From: Candidatus Omnitrophota bacterium
GTDB lineage: Bacteria; Omnitrophota; Gorgyraeia; Zapsychrales; Fredricksoniimonadaceae
Assembly: GCA_016201795.1 (NCBI GenBank)
Contig: JACQCF010000004.1
Span: 10,117 to 74,116 of the forward strand
DNA: 64,000 nt
Direction of reading: 5' to 3'
How positions within the stretch are numbered: position 1 is the stretch's first letter; every line of letters starts with the position of its first letter. The position numbers and the translations under genes are program-made. The notes below the pieces were generated by a model. The model was not told where the DNA came from and searched no databases. It saw nothing but the letters and a program-made list of their open reading frames with translations. Below are positions 1-51,971 of the stretch, one piece after another.

Positions 1-3000
1 TTTGGAGTGAATTTCTTTCAAAGCTTGGGGTGGAACCTGTCAGTGTGGCAGGGCATAGCTTGGGAGAATTGACGGCGTTTTATAGGGCCGGGGCTTTCCC
101 TAAAGAAACCCTTATGAAATTCGCCGAGTTACGCGGGGCATTGATGGCTGCCAAAGGTCGTTTGGCGGGCAGTATGGCCAGTTTATTCTGTTCTAAAGAA
201 AGGGCGGAAGAATTAGTCAGTAAAATATCCGGGAATATCATTATTGCCAATATCAATAGCCCAACCCAGGTGATTGTTTCCGGAGGAAGTAAGGAAATCG
301 ACAAAGTCATCGCATTGGCCAAAAAAGAAGATATTTCAACCTACCGATTGAATGTTTCCAATGCTTTTCATTCTTCTTTGATGGAACCTGCATCTGAAAA
401 GATACTTTCCAGTAAATTACTACACAACACATTTAAACCGTCTGATATTCAAGTCTATTCAGGCATCAGCGCAGCTCCTGTTGAAACAAAGGTCAATTTA
501 AGTGAGTATTTTTCCAAACAGGTCATATCACCGGTGAATTTTATGGGTTTAGTGGAAAATATGTCCAAAGAATGTGATGTAATTATTGAAGTAGGACCAG
601 GCCGGGTTTTGACCGATTTGGTTAAAGCCATCAATAAAGGAGAAGGCCCCTTATGTTTACCCGTTGAATCGACCGCACAGAATGACCGTGATTTAAATAT
701 TGTGCTGGCTGAATTGTTCGTACGTAATGTCCCTGTGAAATGGGAAGAACTGTATAAAAACAGGTTGATTAAGGTATTTGTCCCTGCTTCCCGAAAGAAA
801 TTCATCGAGAACCAGTGTGAACACCCTTTAAAGATAGGCAATCAAATTATAAAGAGTGAAAGTTTACGTTTTTCCCCTCCTTCCACAAAAACCACCCAAC
901 AACCAGAAGAAATCATTCCCGGAGGCTTACAGGCCCAGGAAACAATTAAGGGCAAGGACAATATTGCTGAATTATTGATTGAATTAACGCATAAAATCAC
1001 TGGTTTTGAAAAAGAGAGTATCTCTTTGGATTCAAGACTTTTGGATGATTTAAATCTGGATTCCATTAAAGCGGGAGAGCTTATCGGCCAGGCGGCCAGG
1101 GCTTTGGGTATCGGAGGCAAAATAGACCCATCGCAGATTTCCCACAATACTTTAGGCAAAATCAGGGACCAATTGCATGAGCTGGCTGAAGAACACGGGA
1201 AAGCATCAGATTCAGAGACAAAGGAAGATATTTTAAAGCGTTACCATGATAAATCCTGGGTCAGAAATTTTATCCCTAGTTTAAGACCCGAAGAAATCAC
1301 CACCCGTCATGTGAATCAATTAAACAGTTTAAAGAATATCGTTATTCTTTCAGAGAAGGATGAAGATTCTCTGGCAGAAACAATCAAAGAAGGCTTTAAG
1401 AATAACAAGGTTAAAATTCGAACAATCAATTATGAAGATTCGCATGAGAAAACAAAATTTACTCATGTAAATTGTTTGATAGTAACCCTTCCCAGGGATT
1501 CTCAGCCCAATGATCTCAATAAAGACACCCTAAAAGAAATCATCAAACGTCTCAACAAGGTTGTCGGCCTGGCCAATCAAATAAAGAAGGATGCTTTCAT
1601 TGTTTTTGTGCAGTTTGGCGGGGGCAATTTTGGAGAAAACAGTCATTTGAAGGATATTGCTTCATCATCGGCCAAGTCTTTGGCTTCAACCTTATATCTT
1701 GAAAGGCCGGATTTAAAGGTGAAGATTATTGATTTTGACAGCCAAATATCTGATAAAGAAATTTCATTGAAGATTATCGATGAACTTCAAACGTATGCAA
1801 AGTTTGACGCTGTTGGTTATGATTCAAATTTAAGAAGAAATGTTGTCTATTACGAGAATTCTCAGCCCGTGGACTATAAAAAACGTAATATTTTCTGGTC
1901 ATCTAAAGACGTTGTATTAGTCACAGGAGGGGCTAAGGGGATTACTGCCCAATGCGCTTTGGAATTTGCCCGTTCCACAAAGGCCTGCGTGATTTTGATG
2001 GGCCGTTCCCCAATTCCAAAAGATAAAAATGATGAAATTAATCAAACCTTAAATCAATTTGAAAAAGAACAACTCAAGGCCACTTACTATCAGTGTGATG
2101 TGACCGATGAAACAAGCGTTTTAAAAGCCATAGATGACATTGAACATAAATATGGCAAGATCACAGGGTTCATTCATGGCGCGGGTTTAAACAGCCTAAA
2201 GCGTTTAAAACAAGCCAGTGTCACGGAAGCATTCAATGAATCCTTGCCTAAAGTCATTGGGGCTGTCAATGTTTGCAAAGCTTTATCTAAAAGTCCACCC
2301 AAACTTATCGCCGGGATTACTTCTATTATTGGCTTAACCGGCATGGAGGGAAGCGGTTGGTATGGATTGTCCAATGAAATCCTCAATCTTTACCTGCGTC
2401 AATTTAAAACACAACATCCAAAAACTGAAGTTGTGACCATTGCCTATAGTGTTTGGGATGAAGTAGGTATGGGGGCAAAGCTTGGCAGCGTTGAACGTCT
2501 GGCTCAAAAGGGGATAGGGGCCATACCTGTCAAGGAAGGGGTGAAGCGTTTTAGAGAGCTTATTGAGAACGATCCGGCAACACAGCAAGTCATTGTGGCT
2601 GCCAGAATAGCTGGAATTGATACCTGGAAATTGCCAGTTGTAAAGACAAGCAATTTTAGGTTTATTGAGGATGTGAAATATTTTCTGCCTCAAGTAGAGT
2701 TGATTGTCCAGGCAAAACTTAATGTTAAAGACGATTCCTATTTACTGGACCATAACTGGAAGGGTTCGCTGTTGTTTCCTTTTGTGTTTGGGTTTGAGGC
2801 CATGGCGCAGGCAATGGCTTATGTCTTAGGCATTGATCAATTCGAACAAATTATAGCCAAGGACATTAATCTTGAGCGGCCGATTCCTGTGCCAGAGGAT
2901 ACTGGAATTACAATAGAAATTCACGCGCAGGTTTTACAGCAGGAGAGAAGGCAGGATAGCAGAGAAGTTAAGGTGGAGATTTATTCACAGGATACAGGTT

Positions 3001-5285
3001 ATAAAGAGCCGCATTTTTCAGCGATTTTTGAAATACTTCCCAAGCCTGTCATTCCCCAAAAGGTTGATCTCAGCCAAAGGGTTAAAAATGTCATTGATTT
3101 GGACATGCAGACGGATATTTACGGGCCAGTATTATTTCAAGGGAAGCTGTTTCAGTGTATCGAGCAAATCCATGAGCTTTATTACAACAAGGAAAAGAAT
3201 AAAGGGGAATGTGTTTTTACTTCAGGATATAACAGATCTACTGAAGTGTTTTTAAAGAACAATGAGAAATTCAACAGCCATTTTCTCATTGGCGAACCAT
3301 TTTTTATCGACTCTCTTTTTCAGTCGATGCAGTTAATCATTCCACAGGATATATCTTTACCCAGAGATATTGAGAAGATTGAATTAACACCAATGGAGAA
3401 TCATTCTCACTCTAAGTCTGCTCAATCCGCCATTAAAAGAATTGATAGTGAACATTACAGGGGAGATGCCGAAATTAGTCAGGGTAAGTTTTTATTAAGA
3501 ATAAGGAATTGTCGGCTTAAGGTGCTGAATACTATTTTGAGTAACCCTTCAGCTAATGATTTGGTTAATCCTGCTCAACGTGATCAAAAGATCATAGAAG
3601 ATAAGTTGGCCGAATTGTTTAATGATTTAGGATTTGTACCACCTAAAATTAAATGCCTATATGATGGACGACTTGAAGGATCCTTAAAAGAGTTAAGACA
3701 CAAAATTGAGCTTCCATTAATCAAAGCGGTTGTAGAAGAGGCAATGATTCTAGAAAGAAAGAGAATTAAAAATTTTAAAATCAAATGGCTTAAATCTGGA
3801 AAACCAGTGATTGAAGGAGATAATGCAAAAGGTTTTGGTGTGTCGCTTTCACACAACCATTCATTCCTATTGGTAATTTCTGGCTATGGTGATCAGGGAT
3901 GCGATATAGAAGAAGTACAGGATCGAAGTAAAAGTGATTGGATGGGAATTTTAGGAAGGGAGAAATTTGCATTTTTGGAGAAAATCAATTCTAATGAGGA
4001 AAACCTTAGCGAAGATTGTACCGTTCTTTGGTCTATTATGGAAGCTGGTAAGAAATTGACGGATAAAGTTAACTTAATCGAAATCAATAGGCGGAATAAT
4101 TATGTTATTTCAAGGATTAAAGATGTTTCTGATGATCTTTATATAATTGCTTTAACATTACAACTTACAAAAGGTAATAAAAAAGTATTTTCATTAGCTG
4201 TACGCCGGAAAGATAAATTAAATGTTTCTTCAACACATGATTTCTCCGATAACTCTGTATCTAAAAAGTTAGGGTACAATGACAGTGCACATACTATGCA
4301 CTTAGATTATAGCGGACCACAAGGGCAGTTAGTTTATACAAAAAGATTTCCCGTTACTTTTAAAAGTAATCAAAATTTAAGTAGGAGCGTGTACTTTACA
4401 AACTATGCTGTATGGATGGGGGAAATAAGAGAATACGGTCTTTATCCCATTATGCAAAAATTGGCAGAATTGACAGAAACAGGTGGGTGGGGAATAGCTA
4501 CAAATTACGTTAAAATAAAGATTCTCGGAGAGGTATGGGGTAGAGATACCGTAGAAGTAAGATTATGGATGGTAAAATCTTTAGGTATTAAAGACTCAAC
4601 GTTTGATTGGATGTTTGAATGGCGTAGGGTCTTACCAAATGGAGCATATGAAAGGGTTGCTACAAGTGAACTAAGGACAACATGGGTCAGAATAACTGGA
4701 CATGGGGAAGCAGAAATTGAAGGTATGCCAAAGTTTATTCAGAATTTTATGGATGGTATGAGACCACGAGATAATTCTCCAACTATTTTGGATAAAATTT
4801 CTGAACCTATTAAAAATATTTCAACAGGTCAATTAATTAAGAAAAATGATATTTTAAGCAGACAGAGACATTTGCTTCATGAAGAATCGTTTAAAACTAG
4901 CTTAGAAGAATCAAACTTAGTTGGAAATATTTATTTTGCAAACTACCCTAAATGGTTAGGTAAAACGAGAGATTTATATTTTCAGGGAATAGTTCCAGAG
5001 TACTTTAGGGGGATTGGAAAAGAAGGTGAATTTTTAACTCTTGATTGCAACATTGATCACTTACAAGAAGCCATGCCATTCGATGAGATTATAGTAAGAA
5101 TGTATCTTGAGGTGTTGTATGAAAAAGGATTTGATTTATTTTTTGAGTTTTTTAGAGTTAATCAAGAAGGGGAACAAATAAAATTAGCATTTGGAAGACA
5201 AAAAATAGTATGGATCAAAAGACAAGGCTTAACACCCGTATCTTCCAGACTGCCTAATGATATTTTGGGGTTAATTAAAACTTAG
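1..5285 (+). CDS. Iterative type I polyketide synthase, 5'-truncated at window edge: AT-ACP-KR-DH-PPTase + two hotdog (4HBT-like) thioesterase domains (enediyne-PKS-like domain order)
   Basis: Frame open from nt 3. GHSLGE acyltransferase motif at the N-terminal end. ACP motif LDDLNLDSIKAGEL. KR Rossmann motif VLVTGGAKGITAQ. PKS-DH motif LLDHNWKGSLLFPFVFGF with a distal DSLFQSMQL. PPTase motifs GCDIEEV and WSIMEAGKKL. Two C-terminal hotdog thioesterase repeats (VYFTNYAVWMGEIRE, IYFANYPKWLGKTRD). Confidence 0.8.
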   Translation, partial: WSEFLSKLGVEPVSVAGHSLGELTAFYRAGAFPKETLMKFAELRGALMAAKGRLAGSMASLFCSKERAEELVSKISGNIIIANINSPTQVIVSGGSKEIDKVIALAKKEDISTYRLNVSNAFHSSLMEPASEKILSSKLLHNTFKPSDIQVYSGISAAPVETKVNLSEYFSKQVISPVNFMGLVENMSKECDVIIEVGPGRVLTDLVKAINKGEGPLCLPVESTAQNDRDLNIVLAELFVRNVPVKWEELYKNRLIKVFVPASRKKFIENQCEHPLKIGNQIIKSESLRFSPPSTKTTQQPEEIIPGGLQAQETIKGKDNIAELLIELTHKITGFEKESISLDSRLLDDLNLDSIKAGELIGQAARALGIGGKIDPSQISHNTLGKIRDQLHELAEEHGKASDSETKEDILKRYHDKSWVRNFIPSLRPEEITTRHVNQLNSLKNIVILSEKDEDSLAETIKEGFKNNKVKIRTINYEDSHEKTKFTHVNCLIVTLPRDSQPNDLNKDTLKEIIKRLNKVVGLANQIKKDAFIVFVQFGGGNFGENSHLKDIASSSAKSLASTLYLERPDLKVKIIDFDSQISDKEISLKIIDELQTYAKFDAVGYDSNLRRNVVYYENSQPVDYKKRNIFWSSKDVVLVTGGAKGITAQCALEFARSTKACVILMGRSPIPKDKNDEINQTLNQFEKEQLKATYYQCDVTDETSVLKAIDDIEHKYGKITGFIHGAGLNSLKRLKQASVTEAFNESLPKVIGAVNVCKALSKSPPKLIAGITSIIGLTGMEGSGWYGLSNEILNLYLRQFKTQHPKTEVVTIAYSVWDEVGMGAKLGSVERLAQKGIGAIPVKEGVKRFRELIENDPATQQVIVAARIAGIDTWKLPVVKTSNFRFIEDVKYFLPQVELIVQAKLNVKDDSYLLDHNWKGSLLFPFVFGFEAMAQAMAYVLGIDQFEQIIAKDINLERPIPVPEDTGITIEIHAQVLQQERRQDSREVKVEIYSQDTGYKEPHFSAIFEILPKPVIPQKVDLSQRVKNVIDLDMQTDIYGPVLFQGKLFQCIEQIHELYYNKEKNKGECVFTSGYNRSTEVFLKNNEKFNSHFLIGEPFFIDSLFQSMQLIIPQDISLPRDIEKIELTPMENHSHSKSAQSAIKRIDSEHYRGDAEISQGKFLLRIRNCRLKVLNTILSNPSANDLVNPAQRDQKIIEDKLAELFNDLGFVPPKIKCLYDGRLEGSLKELRHKIELPLIKAVVEEAMILERKRIKNFKIKWLKSGKPVIEGDNAKGFGVSLSHNHSFLLVISGYGDQGCDIEEVQDRSKSDWMGILGREKFAFLEKINSNEENLSEDCTVLWSIMEAGKKLTDKVNLIEINRRNNYVISRIKDVSDDLYIIALTLQLTKGNKKVFSLAVRRKDKLNVSSTHDFSDNSVSKKLGYNDSAHTMHLDYSGPQGQLVYTKRFPVTFKSNQNLSRSVYFTNYAVWMGEIREYGLYPIMQKLAELTETGGWGIATNYVKIKILGEVWGRDTVEVRLWMVKSLGIKDSTFDWMFEWRRVLPNGAYERVATSELRTTWVRITGHGEAEIEGMPKFIQNFMDGMRPRDNSPTILDKISEPIKNISTGQLIKKNDILSRQRHLLHEESFKTSLEESNLVGNIYFANYPKWLGKTRDLYFQGIVPEYFRGIGKEGEFLTLDCNIDHLQEAMPFDEIIVRMYLEVLYEKGFDLFFEFFRVNQEGEQIKLAFGRQKIVWIKRQGLTPVSSRLPNDILGLIKT

Positions 5286-5294
5286 ATAAATATA

Positions 5295-8264
5295 ATGTCT
5301 CTTTTTTCTTTAACTAGTTTGCTGTTATCTATTTTATGTGGACTATTAGCAGTTTATATCTTTTTTAGTTCAAAAGAAACACTATACAAATTATGGAGTT
5401 TATTTAATGGAGTAGTTTGTCTCTGGGGTTTATTTCTATTCTTAGCAAGCCTCTCAAGAATAGAATCCGAGTCTTTAATTTTTTGGAAATTCTCACTTCT
5501 TGCACCAAGCCTGATGCCTTCCATATTGCTTCGATTTATAAATGCATTGACAGATAAAGATAATAAAAATTTTAAGAAATTGTGTGATGTTTATGCCGCT
5601 ATTTCTGTCATTCTAATTTTAGAAACCAATCTCTTTATAAAGAACGGATCTTTCTACTTTGATACTTTTTATTATATTAAATCGACTAAAGCGATGTCTA
5701 TTTGGCTTATATTTTTTGTTTTGTCTATTTGTAAAATTCTATGGAATTTATTTGAATTTACTAGAAATGAAAAAGGCTTAAAGAGTACTCAAGCTACGTA
5801 TATATTTTGGGGTATGTCGGTTGGATTTCTGGGAGGACTTTCTGTTGCTTTGCCAAGTTATGGTTTCAAAATTTTTCCGATTGGGCATATTCTTGTTTCT
5901 GTTTATGCAGCAACAGTCACCTTTGCTATAAAAAGAGAATTTATAGATATGAAATTATCACTTATAAAATTATTAATACCTTTTCTTATAGTGATTTCAG
6001 CCGTTGTTGGCTATTGTTTAACAAATTTTCATCTAAATTTATTTGCTTTGGCTGGTCTGCTTTTAGGATCTGCATGCTTTACTTTAGCTTATGTAATTCT
6101 TGCTTATGCCAATCAAAGGATGCATCACATATGGGCAATATTTAATGTTTGTATTGGTATTTGGGGTGCTGGAACCTTTTTTGTTGGAGTTTCAAATAAG
6201 CCAACCATAGCTTTAATTGCGTGGAAAATTGCGTACATAGGAGTTCTATTGTTACCTGTGCTTTTTTACCACATGATATACATTTTTTGTGACTTAAAAA
6301 ATAAGAAATTTTTAACCTTTGCGTATGCTCAGGTTATTTTTGTCCTTTTAGTTAATATTTTTACAAATCAATTTATAGGAAGGTTAGAGTATGTTTTTAA
6401 CTCTTTTTATTACCATCGTGTAACGAGTGTTTATTTATTTTTCTTTGTTATATGGGTGACAGTAGCAATTAATACCTTTTTTAGGTTGTATAGGTTCATA
6501 AAGACCTCAGAAGGACTAAAAAGAACGCAGGCTCTTTACTTATTTTGGGGAATGTTGTTAGGTTTTGCTGGAGGTACTACCGTTGTGGCTCCAGCTTTCG
6601 GTATCCCTATTTATCCATACGGTCATTTCTTTATATGTATTTATGCAGCAATATGTACTTATGCAATTTTTAGATATCAAGTGTTGGATATCAGAGTTGC
6701 TATAACACGCTTAGGGGTTTTTGTTCTTGTATATTCTTTAGTTTTAGGGGTTCCATTTGGTTTAATTATATGGGGAAAGTTATGGTTATTTAAACTGATG
6801 GGAGAAAATTGGTTCTGGGCTCCAATGTCAACCTTATTGATATTGGCGACTGCTGGGCCATTTATGTATATCTATTTTCAGAGCAGGGCAGAAGAACAGA
6901 TTTTAAAAGAAGAAAGAAGAATCCAGAGCTTGATACAGAAAACTTCCATTGGGATGGTTGCAATCAGGGATTTAAATAAGCTCTTAAAAGTAATAATTGA
7001 TGTCTTAGGAAAGAATTTACAGCTTGAACATATTTCTGTTTATTTGTTCGACCCAAATGAAAATATATATAACCAGAAAGCTTCGGATAAAATTGAGGAG
7101 GAAGGCTTTGTTTTAGAACATGATGATCTTCTGGTCCAAGAATTAAAAAAGAGAAAATCCCCTCTTTATTATGAGGAAATAAACCATCTGCTTCATAATC
7201 AAAAAGACAGTAACGGTGAGCTGAAAGCGCTTGTCGATCGCATGCAGAAATTATCGGCAAGCGTCATTGTCCCGGCAAGCAAAGAAGATATTTTGTTGGC
7301 TTTTATTGTATTGGGAAAAAGAGGCAAAAAAGAAGTTTACTCACCGGAACTGCTGGATGTTCTGGGGGTGGTTGGCAATGAAGCGGCGCTGGCCATAGAA
7401 AACGCCATCTTTTATGAGGAATCGGGTAAGGACTGGTCCGAGAGGGCGCATGACGCCCGATTAAAAATGATGGGAGCCATGGGGTCCGGCATTGCCCACC
7501 AGATTAACAACAAATTTCATGCTATTGGCTTTCAATTAAATTATTTGAAGGAATTATCAGAAGTGTCAGATTTGACGAAAATGACACCGGATGATCTTAG
7601 AAAATCACAGCAGGAACTCAAGGATGAAATCGGAAAAATCCTCACAGAAATCGACCGATCCGTGGAAATAGTCCAGGCCATTAAAAACTACGCCAAAAGG
7701 ACGGGGGCCGAGCCCCAGGTTACGTCATTCAAGGAAGTGGTGACAGGCGCCAAACACCTCGCGAAAATGATCCGCAAAGACAATGATGTGGAATATGAAC
7801 TTATTGAGGATTATCCCGAAAACGTGCTTCTATGGGTCAATTTTTCCATGCTTCAGGACGTTTTTGTCAATGCCTTTGATAATAGCCGCGACGCCTTAAT
7901 CTTGAAGAAATACCGCCTTGGAAAAGACGCGCAGAAGCTCGAGGAATACAAGCCCAAGATAACCGTATCCGGGAGGGCCAACACAACCATGTTTGATTTT
8001 GTCATAGAAGACAACGGCATGGGCATTGAAAAACATCATTTAGAAGAAGGCCAGGGAGTCAACGTCATGTATTTTACGACCAAAGGGGCTGTCAAGGGGA
8101 CCGGCATGGGAATCGCCATGATGCGCCAGTTTGCCAAACACAATAGGGGAGGCTTGAAAATAGAATCCGAGTATGGTCAGTGGACAAGAATAACCATTTC
8201 CTTACCCCTGGCGACCCCGGAACAAATAAAAGGCGGCAGCAATGAACCCAAAAACGGCCGTTGA
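5295..8264 (+). CDS. Sensor histidine kinase with ~450-aa duplicated polytopic membrane sensor, GAF-like domain, HisKA H-box and HATPase_c
   Basis: About 14 predicted TM helices in two homologous modules (LKSTQATYIFWGMSVGFLGG... / LKRTQALYLFWGMLLGFAGG...). H-box GSGIAHQINNKFHAI. G1/G2 boxes EDNGMGIE ... GTGMGIAMM at the C-terminus. Confidence 0.8.
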   Translation: MSLFSLTSLLLSILCGLLAVYIFFSSKETLYKLWSLFNGVVCLWGLFLFLASLSRIESESLIFWKFSLLAPSLMPSILLRFINALTDKDNKNFKKLCDVYAAISVILILETNLFIKNGSFYFDTFYYIKSTKAMSIWLIFFVLSICKILWNLFEFTRNEKGLKSTQATYIFWGMSVGFLGGLSVALPSYGFKIFPIGHILVSVYAATVTFAIKREFIDMKLSLIKLLIPFLIVISAVVGYCLTNFHLNLFALAGLLLGSACFTLAYVILAYANQRMHHIWAIFNVCIGIWGAGTFFVGVSNKPTIALIAWKIAYIGVLLLPVLFYHMIYIFCDLKNKKFLTFAYAQVIFVLLVNIFTNQFIGRLEYVFNSFYYHRVTSVYLFFFVIWVTVAINTFFRLYRFIKTSEGLKRTQALYLFWGMLLGFAGGTTVVAPAFGIPIYPYGHFFICIYAAICTYAIFRYQVLDIRVAITRLGVFVLVYSLVLGVPFGLIIWGKLWLFKLMGENWFWAPMSTLLILATAGPFMYIYFQSRAEEQILKEERRIQSLIQKTSIGMVAIRDLNKLLKVIIDVLGKNLQLEHISVYLFDPNENIYNQKASDKIEEEGFVLEHDDLLVQELKKRKSPLYYEEINHLLHNQKDSNGELKALVDRMQKLSASVIVPASKEDILLAFIVLGKRGKKEVYSPELLDVLGVVGNEAALAIENAIFYEESGKDWSERAHDARLKMMGAMGSGIAHQINNKFHAIGFQLNYLKELSEVSDLTKMTPDDLRKSQQELKDEIGKILTEIDRSVEIVQAIKNYAKRTGAEPQVTSFKEVVTGAKHLAKMIRKDNDVEYELIEDYPENVLLWVNFSMLQDVFVNAFDNSRDALILKKYRLGKDAQKLEEYKPKITVSGRANTTMFDFVIEDNGMGIEKHHLEEGQGVNVMYFTTKGAVKGTGMGIAMMRQFAKHNRGGLKIESEYGQWTRITISLPLATPEQIKGGSNEPKNGR

Positions 8265-36876: not shown

Positions 36877-37476
36877 ATGCTTCTTCGTTGTACTCAAAAA
36901 TTTCTCACCGAGCTTCGCCTTAAGAAAAAAGAGATCGCCGAATCTTGCGGAGTTTTGCATCCGTTGGATGAATGGTATGCGCACATCTTCTTTCTTTATC
37001 CTCGCAGAAAGAGCGCAATCTTTATGCACGCAAAGACAGGGTTTTGTTTCTTCGCCTTTGACCGGACACGGGATCAGTTAAATGACATTAAAGGCCTTTT
37101 TGGTAAATGCCTTGGCCGGGCCCTGTTTGATGAGCATTACCCTGCTTCGGTCATCAAGCTGTTTAATGAGCATCTTGAGAATATTCAAATAGGGCGGACC
37201 ATTGACCGAAAGATCGTGTCCCTGGTTAACCGGCGTCTCTTTGAATTGGGCTGTACTGGCGATTATCATCCTGATGACAGGCGAGTGCATGATGAGTTTC
37301 TTGCGGGACTGGATTTCCGCAGGGAATTGACACTCAAAGATTCTCGTTACCCAATTGAGCGGATGCGGGACCTTTTGGCAGGTCTGGATGAGTTAAGAGG
37401 GGTGGAGATACCTCCAGCGAAAGAGAAACATGAAGTTCTGGAAGCCTTTTTTGAGACGCTCAGGCGGAACAGATAG
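36877..37476 (+). CDS. Hypothetical protein (199 aa), no recognised domain
   Basis: ORF only. Confidence 0.5.
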   Translation: MLLRCTQKFLTELRLKKKEIAESCGVLHPLDEWYAHIFFLYPRRKSAIFMHAKTGFCFFAFDRTRDQLNDIKGLFGKCLGRALFDEHYPASVIKLFNEHLENIQIGRTIDRKIVSLVNRRLFELGCTGDYHPDDRRVHDEFLAGLDFRRELTLKDSRYPIERMRDLLAGLDELRGVEIPPAKEKHEVLEAFFETLRRNR

Positions 37477-37524
37477 ACCAATGTTCCAGTAGGAAGGGGA
37501 TTATGATAAGTAGGGGAATCAATT

Positions 37525-38391
37525 ATGGATTTATTCAATGATTCAAATGAAACAGTACAAAAACTATATGGAAAACAAATTTGTTCGAATTTTCCTGCTT
37601 ATAAAACCTTATGGGATGAATTTATAGGAGAAAGAGAACTAGGTGGAATACTGGAGCCCTATGAGACAGAATTTCCAAACACACCCTCAGAAATAAAAAT
37701 AATATTACAAGAGGAGTACAAACAAATATCCATCGTTCATTATTCTATTTTCTTTAATTTTGCATCAGCTCACGAAGATTTTAATTTAATCCTTAAGGCC
37801 CCAGCTGAGAAAAATGACAAAGAATATTTTTTATATCTAAAATGCATTAATTCGATATATTCCAATTTGGGGAATATATTCGACTTGCTTGAGAGATTAT
37901 TTGCAAATGTATTAACATTAGTCAATAAAAAGGGTAAACAGAAATTCAAAAAATATTTGAAGCTTAAATTAGCTTGGCCAGAGTACCTCCCTTTGGAAGA
38001 GACAATAAAGAAGAAACGAAACATTTTGGCGCATGCTTACTCGGTTATGCCAATGGTTATTCATAAAAATGATATTAAAATTCCTCTCAGCTTGGTAAAT
38101 CCCAAAGGAAATGATAAGACTGTCTCTGAATTATTAGCTGAAGATAAGAAAGAATGGGTGTCTTTACAAAACGTTCTTAAAGAAGATATTGAAAAAATGG
38201 AGAAACTTGTAAATAAAATTGACTTGCTTTTCATAAATGAGCTTCAGGAATTTAAAAGAAAAGGAGGGATTCTCATTAGATACCCTGCCAATTCAACTTC
38301 TTATGGAATGCAAAGTCTTCCTTCTCTTTCAGCAAGACCTGTTTCAACCAGTAGTACTATTATCATTAAACCCTCAGGGTGCCAAACTTAA
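37525..38391 (+). CDS. AT-rich hypothetical protein with HEPN-type Rx4HxY motif (KKRNILAHAY); putative abortive-infection/toxin RNase
   Basis: GC clearly lower than its flanks (about 33% by eye). Motif R-N-I-L-A-H-A-Y at about residue 175 matches the HEPN Rx4-6H(xY) signature. Confidence 0.5.
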   Translation: MDLFNDSNETVQKLYGKQICSNFPAYKTLWDEFIGERELGGILEPYETEFPNTPSEIKIILQEEYKQISIVHYSIFFNFASAHEDFNLILKAPAEKNDKEYFLYLKCINSIYSNLGNIFDLLERLFANVLTLVNKKGKQKFKKYLKLKLAWPEYLPLEETIKKKRNILAHAYSVMPMVIHKNDIKIPLSLVNPKGNDKTVSELLAEDKKEWVSLQNVLKEDIEKMEKLVNKIDLLFINELQEFKRKGGILIRYPANSTSYGMQSLPSLSARPVSTSSTIIIKPSGCQT

Positions 38392-38436
38392 TGTATAAAA
38401 CCAACAATAGTTATATGATATTGATAAATCTAGAGC

Positions 38437-38577
38437 TTGGTGCTGGAGCGCTTGGCCGATGTTAAAACGGTGTCAGATAATTTTTTTAAGCTGGCGGCTC
38501 ATGATTTTGAGGATGCCAGAAAATTGTTAGATACCATCAACACCGACGAAAAGTTATCGAATATTTTTGATATGTAA
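38437..38577 (+). CDS. Possible small ORF (~46 aa, TTG/GTG start), protein-like sequence ...LADVKTVSDNFFKLAAHDFEDARKLLDTINTDEKLSNIFDM
   Basis: Not in the ORF track (short, non-ATG start). Could be a gene remnant. Confidence 0.2.
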   Translation: MVLERLADVKTVSDNFFKLAAHDFEDARKLLDTINTDEKLSNIFDM

Positions 38578-38617
38578 AAAATACAAGGCTTAATTTGACT
38601 TTACATCAAGAAAGTTG

Positions 38618-38645
38618 TTGACAAAATAAATGATTCTGGTAATAT
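38618..38645 (+). promoter_or_regulatory. Sigma70-like promoter TTGACA-N16/17-TAATAT
   Basis: Preceded by TTTACATCAAG at 38600, shared with the 22925 promoter. Confidence 0.45.
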
Positions 38646-38731
38646 CATTCCCAGCAGTCAAGAAACACTGATACCGATTCCCCATCGGTGAAAAGTTTTA
38701 AAAACTTCCCCAAACAATCTTCAGGAAATAC

Positions 38732-39679
38732 ATGCTTAAAAATTTTTCATTTCTGGTATTTATTCTCATAGGGATACTCTCTGGCTGTTTACAGCAAGCA
38801 CCCGAGACCGAACAAGCCCAGGGTGGCGTTAGAGACGACTTGCTTAAAAAATATGACAAAATGGTTTCGGAAAGGCAAAAAGAAATCAACCACCTTGCCA
38901 ATGAAATTAAGCACAACGACCATTCCGCGGACTTATTTTATCGGAAGGCCCTTCTTGAGATAGAAAATAACAATTTACGGGATGCTTTATCGCAATGCTG
39001 GCTTTATAAAGACTCCGCTGGTCATAAAGAAGAGAAGAAAGTCTACGGCCTTTTTTCAGTGTTGCAAGACAGGGCCAAGGGCGTGCGGGAGGATATGAAA
39101 GGTGTCATATTAACTCATCCCGATTGTTTTAAAATCGCGGACACCAGTGAATTAATCGCCTCCTATCAACAAAGGGCCATGTCTTCCTCTTATGATATCG
39201 TCCAGCAGCCTGTCAGGGACTTGAGCAGGGCCATAGAGCTGGGGACAAGGCAGAAAGAAGCTTACCTTTACAGATCCCAGCTTGATACAGAATCGGAACT
39301 GAATGACTACTCCAAAGCGTTAAGTATTACCCCTGATGCCCCAACCTACATTAAAAGAGCCATTTTGTATTATCAAAAAGATGATCGCCTGGTTTATCGC
39401 GACTGCCTGAATGCGATAAATTTAGACCCAGGGTATCCCGATAGCTATGTCTTAAAAGCCCTGGAGGAATGGAATAATTCTGCTTCTTGTTCCAATAGTG
39501 ATCATAGCGTAAGAAAGGCCTGCCAACGGCAAGTGGCTCAAACAATATTAAATGATTTAAAGACAGCGTATGCGTACGATCCAAGTTTTCCTTTATTGAA
39601 AGAGGATATCGAAAGATATAGCAAGTCCTTAGAAGAGGATGACCCCGAAGTCTGGGGATTTAGTTCTGAGAATTATTAG
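38732..39679 (+). CDS. Lipoprotein with TPR-like helical repeats
   Basis: Lipobox LSGC. Repeated helical motifs (YRKALLEIENNNLRDAL, YIKRAILYYQKDD, YVLKALEEWNN). Confidence 0.6.
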   Translation: MLKNFSFLVFILIGILSGCLQQAPETEQAQGGVRDDLLKKYDKMVSERQKEINHLANEIKHNDHSADLFYRKALLEIENNNLRDALSQCWLYKDSAGHKEEKKVYGLFSVLQDRAKGVREDMKGVILTHPDCFKIADTSELIASYQQRAMSSSYDIVQQPVRDLSRAIELGTRQKEAYLYRSQLDTESELNDYSKALSITPDAPTYIKRAILYYQKDDRLVYRDCLNAINLDPGYPDSYVLKALEEWNNSASCSNSDHSVRKACQRQVAQTILNDLKTAYAYDPSFPLLKEDIERYSKSLEEDDPEVWGFSSENY

Positions 39680-50605: not shown

Positions 50606-50742
50606 AATGAGATTATTCCTTGAAATCTCCAAGCAAAACATTCGATCGACGTTGAAATTATCTGCAAATGGTCTATAATTGAGAATGTTTATCGGTGGTA
50701 GGCCCATTTGCAAGAAAGGAGGTTTTGAAAGGAGAAAGTCAA

Positions 50743-51864
50743 ATGGGAACTACATTTAAACGCGGTAAGAAATGGGGTATTAGTGTTATTGATTCTCACG
50801 GCCGGCAAATACGAAAAATGGTTTCTTCTTATAAAGAAACCGCCGAGCGCATCCTCAAGAAAATTGAAACAGAAATAGTAGAGGGTAAATACCTCGATAT
50901 TAAGAAATATGAAAAGATTTTCTTTGAGGACTTTGCATCAGAGTATATTAAAACTCATGTCAGGTTGGAATTGAAGAATCCTAGAAATCAAGAATATATG
51001 ATTAATTGTTTGGCTACTCAATTCCGTGGAAAATATTTGCATCAAATCGATGCACTTATGATTCGTCAACATATGGCAAGAAGGTTGAGGGTTGTGCGTC
51101 CTGCTTCAGTTAATCGGGAGTTTCAAACTCTTAAATCCATGTTTAACCGAGCAATAGAATGGGGTATGTACTCTGGCAGTAATCCTGCCGTGGGCATTAA
51201 GAATGTTCCCCAAAATAACAGCCGTTGCCGGTGGCTTACGGAGGAAGAACAGGAACGCCTTTTGTCTTGCTGTAGTAATAACCTTACAAGAGTAATAATT
51301 CTGGTCGCGCTTAAAACAGGTATGCGTTGGGGAGAAATTGTTACGCTAAAATGGAAACAGGCGGCCTGCAGTAACTATGTGGATTTCGATAATGGTGTAA
51401 TTTTTGTTCATGAGTCTTTGGCCAAGAGCCAGCGCTCTCGGCATATTCCTTTAAGTGATGCTGTTCGTATGGCATTGCAGGGACTTGAACGAATTCCAAA
51501 CACTGATTATATTTTTTACAACCCGACGACTTTAAAGCCAATGGGGAGTTTAAAAAGATCATTCCACACAGCATTGAGAAGGGCCAAAATTAGCAATTTT
51601 AGGTTCCATGACTTGCGTCACACATTCGCTTCTCAGCTTGTGCGATGTGGGGTTGACCTTTATGTTGTTCAGAAATTATTGGGTCACACTTCACCAAAAA
51701 TGACACAGCGTTATGCCCATTTAAGATCAGATCAATTAAAAGAAGCTATTGAAAGAATCGATATGCAATCTAAAAATAATGTGTATCATGCGGATTCCAA
51801 CAATAGCACGTTTTTAGCACATTCTGATTTTGATAAGAAACAGGATATGAGCAATGTTTTATAA
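50743..51864 (+). CDS. Tyrosine-type site-specific integrase
   Basis: HDLRHTFAS...LLGHTSPKMTQRYAHL catalytic box. GGAG RBS before the ATG at 50743. Confidence 0.9.
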   Translation: MGTTFKRGKKWGISVIDSHGRQIRKMVSSYKETAERILKKIETEIVEGKYLDIKKYEKIFFEDFASEYIKTHVRLELKNPRNQEYMINCLATQFRGKYLHQIDALMIRQHMARRLRVVRPASVNREFQTLKSMFNRAIEWGMYSGSNPAVGIKNVPQNNSRCRWLTEEEQERLLSCCSNNLTRVIILVALKTGMRWGEIVTLKWKQAACSNYVDFDNGVIFVHESLAKSQRSRHIPLSDAVRMALQGLERIPNTDYIFYNPTTLKPMGSLKRSFHTALRRAKISNFRFHDLRHTFASQLVRCGVDLYVVQKLLGHTSPKMTQRYAHLRSDQLKEAIERIDMQSKNNVYHADSNNSTFLAHSDFDKKQDMSNVL

Positions 51865-51894
51865 CCTATTGAAATTAAAAAATTTGAGAGTTTT

Positions 51895-51971
51895 GGGTCG
51901 GTAGCTCAGTTTGGGAGAGCGCCTCGTTCGCAATGAGGAGGCCGGGGGTTCGATCCCCCCCCGATCCACCA
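51895..51971 (+). tRNA. tRNA-Ala (anticodon CGC at 51929-51931), CCA encoded
   Basis: Cloverleaf folded by hand: 7-bp acceptor with G3:U70, D-arm GCTC/GAGC, anticodon loop TTCGCAA, T-arm GGGGG/TTCGATC/CCCCC. Confidence 0.9.

Follow-up and report, generated by a model that had tools for sequence, protein, structure and literature searches.

Two co-oriented genes lie next to each other in the cargo of a mobile element from a Candidatus Omnitrophota bacterium, and the question raised by this locus is whether they act together as a single defence system. They occupy positions 36877-38391 of the window, that is, the whole stretch of 64,000 nucleotides analysed here (assembly GCA_016201795.1, contig JACQCF010000004.1, positions 10,117 to 74,116), and correspond to locus tags HY209_01220 and HY209_01225 of a 143.5-kb contig of a Candidatus Omnitrophica metagenome-assembled genome. 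A first-pass annotation, made from the letters alone, had described them as a two-gene defence or toxin module in the cargo of an integrative and conjugative element (ICE), formed by an effector with a HEPN motif and a protein of 199 amino acids (aa) that would be its sensor or antitoxin. The open reading frames (ORFs) are exactly those described, both on the plus strand, being gene 1 at 36877..37476 (199 aa) and gene 2 at 37525..38391 (288 aa), with a gap of 48 bp between them. However, the module itself does not hold. Gene 1 belongs to the DUF6933 family, and a DUF6933 gene is found in only one of the 37 unique loci of the gene-2 family with at least 700 bp of upstream sequence, that one being the window. 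Likewise, none of nine other DUF6933 loci contains a relative of gene 2. Co-occurrence in other genomes was the check that the annotation itself had named, and the pair was found nowhere else. Also, the GC content of both genes is discordant, being 47.0% for gene 1 and 31.8% for gene 2. Because of the lack of co-occurrence and this discordance, the adjacency is read as a coincidence within a cargo islet, where genes 1 and 2 are two independent single-gene items of the defence or toxin-antitoxin (TA) repertoire of the ICE. The best explanation of the locus as a whole, which we regard as probable, is an independent DUF6933 gene beside a separately acquired, HEPN-like effector of what is called here the tail type. 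In place of a novel module of DUF6933 and HEPN proteins, the analysis uncovered a new protein family in which a HEPN-type motif is essentially invariant and a micro-partner is conserved.

The composition of gene 2 agrees with the description of a strikingly AT-rich gene. Its GC content of 31.8% (27.7% at third codon positions) compares with 43.8% for the window (standard deviation of 4.6% among windows of equal size), and only 2% of these windows are this low. The low-GC block spans from ~37480 to 38730, including the 340-bp spacer located 3' of the gene, and no insertion scars or attachment (att) repeats were found flanking it. The closest relatives of gene 2 have 30-32% GC, and these data fit the separate acquisition that had been proposed, with a low-GC genome as the donor. 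Its reading frame is unbroken and of full length, and a Shine-Dalgarno-like AGGGGA lies 7 nt upstream.

The annotation had assigned neither gene to a recognisable family, a claim that fails for gene 1 and stands for gene 2, which gave no match against Pfam, NCBIfam, PADLOC, PHROGs or the Protein Data Bank (PDB) sequences. A word-indexed search with gene 2 retrieves only two relatives (43-45% identity), and the same kind of search with the family profile only five proteins, the family being visible mainly by exhaustive search. When 1.84 billion representatives were searched exhaustively with a profile, 115 proteins were recovered at E<1e-3, 78 of them at E<1e-10 and most of 250-270 aa. When 61 aligned members were compared with Pfam at E<=0.01, no family match was obtained, one stray match excepted. 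The family is undescribed, being absent from all five of these resources. It is defined by a domain of ~255 aa with the signature FPxYxxFWxxFIG … HYxLF … Y..LG … R[ND]xxxH, to which the window protein conforms (246 bits and E 2e-74 against the family profile), keeping residues Y26, W30, G35, Y46, H72, Y73, F76, Y112, G116, R165, H170, and P187. Loci were sought in species genomes, metagenomes, and viral contigs with a degenerate DNA pattern, designed by hand from the signature F-P-x-Y-x-x-F-W-x-x-F-I-G, and 58 loci with a family member (53 unique) were collected in all. Besides metagenomes, these come from the genomes of two Bathyarchaeota, one Methanocellales archaeon, one Omnitrophota, and one uncultured bacterium, and the scan of 2.9 million viral contigs with the pattern gave no family match.

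The HEPN assignment had been based on the sequence KKRNILAHAY, which is present in gene 2 and was taken as the Rx4HxY motif of HEPN RNases. In an alignment of 131 unique complete members (~17-46% identical), R165 is kept in 98% and H170 in 99%, whereas position 172 is occupied by A (29%), S (27%), or G (19%) in most relatives and the tyrosine is not conserved. The candidate catalytic motif is then Rx4H, R165-N-I-L-A-H170 at 38017..38034 of the plus strand (R165 at nt 38017-38019, H170 at nt 38032-38034). The residue following R165 is N in 44%, D in 34%, and H in 9% of these members, 87% together. The hallmark of HEPN proteins is an Rx4-6H motif whose arginine is followed by a polar residue, N, D, or H (PMC3710099), and the gene-2 family conforms to this definition.

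The predicted structure points in the same direction. The AlphaFold2 model of gene 2 is all-alpha (predicted template modelling score, pTM, 0.68), with a HEPN-like four-helix core at residues 55-245 (37687..38259, plus strand) composed of helices 55-90, 98-132, 151-173, and 208-245. Helices 2 and 3 are separated by an insert (residues 133-150) with a short helix at 141-147, and between helices 3 and 4 there is a loop that contains a hairpin at 175-202. In this model the C-terminal end of helix 151-173 carries the Rx4H motif, and the loop follows. This corresponds to the HEPN layout (PMC3710099), in which four helices form an up-and-down bundle, an insert parts helices 2 and 3, and the motif is placed where helix 3 ends or the loop to helix 4 starts. 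Sub-threshold library matches also lean to HEPN, namely Pfam HEPN_Apea (2 of the 61 members, best E 0.023), HEPN_MAE_28990, and a single Pfam HepT-like match (1 of 61, E 0.053), and those of PADLOC are to CARF-HEPN and Cas13a. In hhalign comparisons of the family with DUF3644 and DUF4209 HEPN proteins, the sole local match places motif on motif. The label HEPN-like is used for gene 2 because motif and layout fit, yet no significant sequence or fold match was obtained. The fold and profile evidence is compatible with a HEPN protein and not conclusive, and we favour, with moderate confidence, that gene 2 is a true HEPN RNase. On the other hand, the specific resemblance to HepT was ruled out. In HepT-MntA the tyrosine of RX4HXY is the AMPylation site, a residue that is not conserved in the gene-2 family, and no MNT nucleotidyltransferase turned up among the domain-scanned neighbours of family members.

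The clustering of neighbouring genes revealed a small co-oriented gene directly downstream of most family members. It encodes a Cys4 zinc-ribbon protein of 45-86 aa with an N-terminal knuckle CPxCG, a C-terminal knuckle [YW]xC(x2-4)CGY, and a Ser/Gly-rich linker between them with a conserved core G-S-[IVLA]-[DS]. Comparison of this partner with Pfam and PADLOC gave only generic zinc-ribbon half-matches. Relative to the stop codon of the effector it begins at -47 to +13 nt, in most cases at -4 to +4, the two genes being translationally coupled. After manual correction, the partner is present in 33 of the 34 domain-only loci with enough downstream DNA. Moreover, six family members are fused C-terminally to a complete zinc ribbon, and these fusions provide a Rosetta-stone link between effector and zinc ribbon. 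The canonical form of the family is a two-gene operon, in which an effector of ~260 aa is followed by the zinc-ribbon gene.

The window protein belongs to a third architecture, in addition to the split and fused forms. Gene 2 is a tail-type member of the family and a predicted RNase effector, one of ~20 further unique members that carry a disordered Ser-rich tail without cysteines. In this case the tail comprises residues 254-288 (…SLPSLSARPVSTSSTIIIKPSGCQT; 38284..38388, plus strand), with a predicted local distance difference test (pLDDT) score below 35. Tails of this type have in common the motifs [LP][PS]S[LSC][SA]A and, close to the terminus, SG[DC], and the proteins that bear them fall into several separate clades. 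The partner is found in none of the four tail-type loci with usable context (the window, L001, L010, and L064) vs 33 of 34 domain-only loci (Fisher p=6.8e-5). This mutual exclusivity, together with the resemblance of motifs, suggests that the Ser-rich tail may replace the partner.

In the window, the place of the zinc-ribbon gene is taken by a low-GC intergenic stretch at 38392..38731 (34.7% GC, no strand assigned), which would have come in with gene 2. It contains no Cys-containing ORF and gave no tblastx or blastn match to any of the loci. An ORF of 46 aa at 38437-38577 sits where relatives have the zinc-ribbon gene; it is not conserved, and was rejected as a degenerate partner because it lacks cysteines and resembles none of the loci. 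A type III TA system, with an RNA antitoxin encoded in this stretch, was also rejected, given the lack of tandem repeats and of an Rfam match. The next gene (38732-39679) is preceded by a good sigma-70-like promoter match at 38618-38645 (TTGACA-16-TAATAT with TG) and encodes a protein of 315 aa that bears a signal of the lipoprotein type (…LSGC) and matches TPR models weakly; a relation of this gene to gene 2 is improbable.

The surroundings of the relatives of gene 2 are those of a typical defence island. For example, DUF4238, a validated single-gene anti-phage system (PMC9122126), adjoins a family member in two loci (L010 and L017), and a DUF3644/PDC-S19 gene, for a HEPN protein akin to HEC-08 and Ishtar, is directly upstream of P0003, a relative of the window protein. 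Other neighbours are DUF4209/PDC-S39, a PF05168 HEPN protein, a GajA-like TOPRIM protein, and, in L008, an operon of a methyltransferase and DUF2130 with MazE/PIN and a serine recombinase. TA pairs are also found beside family members, of the HigBA type in L015 (by domain scan) and of the VapBC type in L011 (by eye). L064 (2490-6906, the same as L079) contains a DISARM DrmD helicase of full length (PADLOC E=0) with a tail-type member two genes upstream of it; between them there is a small ORF of HTH-like type, and a weakly matching DUF5677 protein overlaps upstream. The earlier idea of a HEPN effector in a defence islet is plausible and supported in part, by the motif, by its placement on helix 3, and by relatives located in defence and TA islands, and is limited by fold and profile evidence that is not conclusive.

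The closest analogues of the family are RAZR/PD-T7-4 and HEC-08. RAZR is a ring-activated zinc-finger RNase in which the zinc-finger domain acts as the sensor (PMC13017515). However, its Cys4 zinc ribbon is N-terminal and fused, whereas in the gene-2 family the ribbon is encoded by its own gene downstream or is fused to the C terminus. The HEPN domain of RAZR is DUF4145 with an R146…H154 spacing, compared with the strict Rx4H of the gene-2 family, and no match to PADLOC PD-T7-4 or Pfam DUF4145 was obtained for any of the 61 members. In addition, the gene-2 family has a specific N-terminal region of ~50 aa, and the window protein is devoid of any zinc ribbon. HEC-08/EC042_2821-DUF3644 and Ishtar combine a HEPN Rx4-6H motif with zinc-ribbon-like modules in single-protein defence systems (bioRxiv 10.1101/2024.01.29.577857; 10.64898/2026.07.06.735840). 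Nonetheless, their HEPN family is a different one (hhalign probability <1%, with only the motif aligned), and their zinc ribbons are C-terminally fused, in multiple copies, and with no Ser-rich linker. In the case of RnlA-RnlB/LsoA-LsoB, where the HEPN toxin RNase LS is followed by a small downstream antitoxin, RnlA has extra N-terminal domains and RnlB is no zinc ribbon, and no sequence relationship to the gene-2 family was detected. It is plausible that the gene-2 system is a variant of the HEPN nucleases regulated by zinc-ribbon modules, represented in the window by its partner-less tail type.

According to the mechanism that we propose, the effector would be a dimeric, metal-independent endoribonuclease of the HEPN type that arrests translation in the manner of an abortive-infection system or a toxin. 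The zinc-ribbon protein would regulate it, either as a sensor, as in RAZR, or as a labile antitoxin, like RnlB. In the clade of the window the separate partner is gone, and the Ser-rich tail of the effector would presumably regulate in cis. In its widest form, the proposal is that gene 2 represents an undescribed two-component immune or toxin system, with a new RNase of the HEPN clan and a Cys4 zinc-ribbon controller whose Ser/Gly-rich loop is regulatory, widespread in uncultivated archaea (Bathyarchaeota and Methanocellales) and bacteria (Omnitrophota and others). The loop would be transplantable to the C terminus of the effector, generating a self-contained single-gene system, and the whole would be a split counterpart of RAZR in reversed order. 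This proposal is put forward tentatively, at somewhat less than even chances.

In a second reading, the family would be a classical TA addiction module, with a HEPN toxin followed by a zinc-ribbon antitoxin, that stabilises mobile elements with no phage sensing, the copy in the window being a self-inhibited or attenuated solo toxin. Nevertheless, most neighbours are dedicated defence genes (DUF4238, DrmD, PDC-S19, and PDC-S39), no member is present on the viral contigs scanned, and there is a precedent for a sensor made of a zinc ribbon plus HEPN in RAZR, which is non-toxic alone (PMC13017515). We give an addiction module a modest, clearly minority probability, and it overlaps with the best explanation of the locus and does not exclude it.

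Several points weigh against the proposed HEPN effector and its regulation by ribbon or tail. The model of gene 2 is of moderate quality (pLDDT 66, from an alignment of three sequences), and no link to a HEPN family, by sequence or by profile, reached statistical significance, the best Pfam E value being 0.02. The hhalign comparisons with single sequences of DUF3644, PF05168, and DUF4209 were not significant (probability <3%), and PDB sequence searches with the family alignments gave nothing meaningful. As for the library and fold checks that the annotation had suggested, PADLOC returned PDC-S63 for gene 1 and no match for gene 2, and Foldseek of the gene 2 model against the PDB retrieved generic helical bundles only (E >=0.09). 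Furthermore, helices 1-2 (37735-37920), with LAGAHxQ…F.HWE.FE..Y..LGN, show weak TPR-like matches (OGT TPRs, summed E 0.003; TPR_11, E 0.57), a resemblance that may be motif mimicry or a distant relationship between helical hairpins. Regarding the regulation, the sample of loci is biased by the use of a single DNA pattern, the tail-type loci with usable context are only four, and homology of the tail to the linker of the partner was not demonstrable, the partner hidden Markov model giving no significant match to the tails that lack a zinc ribbon. The window protein has also lost acidic residues conserved in the family, with Q12 and K106 each in place of E, and N109 in place of E or D. Finally, as regards the independence of genes 1 and 2, no terminator is predicted between them, and they may be co-transcribed.

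In a third reading, the proteins of the gene-2 family would be helical scaffolds with no catalytic activity, whether generic four-helix bundles or TPR-like, and their conserved R and H would serve for folding or for binding, for example, of the zinc-ribbon protein, in place of RNA cleavage. The generic bundles and the TPR-like matches just described can be set beside the placement of an almost invariant Rx4H motif where helix 3 ends, and we consider a scaffold unlikely.

The copy in the window could also be an inactive remnant, decaying cargo that has lost its partner and key acidic residues. The absence of a partner gene, the non-conserved 340-bp spacer that follows gene 2, and the substitutions at conserved sites (Q12, K106, N109, and S173) would be in line with decay. 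However, the ORF is complete and preceded by its Shine-Dalgarno-like sequence, and Q12, N109, and the tail are common to the members of the window clade (P0002, P0003, and P0070), which are only 43-46% identical to the window protein. Since these features are kept in such divergent members, the architecture is old and maintained. Moreover, several independent tail-type clades exist, and a remnant appears quite improbable.

Last, it is highly improbable that genes 1 and 2 make up one abortive-infection or toxin module, in which the 199-aa protein would act on the HEPN effector as its sensor or its antitoxin: the favourable points, two co-oriented genes at short distance with no intervening terminator that may share the promoter-like site at 36244-36272, and the mention of operons that combine HEPN proteins with a NamA-like nuclease of RNase H fold (PMC3710099), face the absence of the pair from 52 other unique family loci and nine other DUF6933 loci, the discordant GC contents, a conserved zinc-ribbon partner proper to the gene-2 family, and a DUF6933 family that has variable neighbours and is listed by PADLOC as a single-gene candidate.

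Gene 1 is a bona fide member of DUF6933, with no feature that sets it apart from its family. It matches the Pfam entry (PF22016) with E 3e-23 and 82.8 bits, above the gathering cut-off of 27 bits, and the PADLOC single-gene candidate PDC-S63 (PDLC05054) with E 5e-11. A high-confidence model predicts for it a fold like that of RNase H and DDE integrases. The gene is considered native to genomes of the Omnitrophota type. Among 66 homologues, many from Omnitrophica, E32 and D110 are invariant and D31, D62, and E140 near-invariant. Given these conserved acidic residues, a function as nuclease is plausible, and gene 1 is a putative member of this class of enzymes. In ten DUF6933 loci the neighbours differ from one locus to another, including Mrr-like and HNH nucleases, HTH-M78 (ImmA/IrrE-like) pairs, AbiEi/AbiEii, Fic, DUF3800, an MmeI-type restriction-modification system, an SNF2-PLD helicase, HsdM, and BrnT. 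This pattern is that of a stand-alone gene of defence, restriction-modification, or TA islands with no fixed neighbour. No literature on DUF6933 or PDC-S63 was found.

Two side observations concern these loci. In L004 (3763-5545) the BrnT and BrnA genes are split by an inserted gene of 422 aa of unknown function and lie 370 bp downstream of the DUF6933 gene, a proximity of BrnT/BrnA and DUF6933 seen here for the second time, the window being the first. Also, large proteins that contain a papain-fold peptidase domain of C39-like type adjoin DUF6933 in L003 (6701-8188) and a gene-2 relative in L060 (7060-8805).

With respect to the context in the window, the annotation had placed both genes next to a BrnT/BrnA pair, and an overlapping pair is indeed located upstream, although its matches stay below the curated cut-offs. 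The BrnT-like toxin candidate (92 aa; 36287..36565, plus strand) matches Pfam BrnT_toxin with E 1e-4 and 23 bits (cut-off of 34.5 bits). The CopG/BrnA-like antitoxin candidate (93 aa; 36562..36843, plus strand) matches Pfam CopG_antitoxin with E 2.6e-4 and 22.1 bits (cut-off of 28) and NCBIfam BrnA with E 0.013 and 15.7 bits (cut-off of 60). The sizes of these ORFs and their overlap of 4 bp are consistent with a TA pair, and a strong sigma-70-like promoter match (36244-36272) precedes the BrnT-like gene. Both are described here only as context and fall outside the gene-2 system.

The ICE setting of the islet is real, as had been annotated. Downstream of gene 2 there are genes for MobC-like, VirB4/TraC, TrbL, VirB9-like (CagX), and VirB10-like (TrbI) proteins, a type IV coupling protein, and a tyrosine integrase, so that a type IV secretion system, the coupling protein, a relaxase-associated gene, and a tRNA-side integrase are all present. 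The integrase abuts tRNA-Ala(cgc) (51895-51971) in the region 50695-51971, which corresponds to the right end of the ICE, with housekeeping genes beyond. No direct repeat of tRNA-Ala was found elsewhere in the 64-kb window, leaving the left end undefined, and neither a relaxase nor an att repeat was identified within the window. Directly upstream of the islet there is a giant ORF of 2945 aa (26863-35700), which by eye shows an RHS/YD core-end-like motif at its start (…RYYDSSAGRFITKD…DPQGL), many YD-type repeats, and Ig/FN3-like stretches. A second AT-rich patch, at ~4900-5770, has 29.4% GC over 867 bp, the minimum of the window, and sits where the large ORFs 30-5285 and 5295-8264 meet.

The RNase H-like model of gene 1 would be the first fold assignment for the candidate defence gene DUF6933/PDC-S63. 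As for gene 2, if its family is a true RNase-based defence or TA system, it would enlarge the HEPN repertoire of little-studied archaea and candidate phyla by one family. In that case, its split, fused, and tail-only architectures would offer a natural domain-swap series on the regulation that small zinc ribbons or peptide tails exert on HEPN nucleases, a question that has only recently been raised by RAZR.

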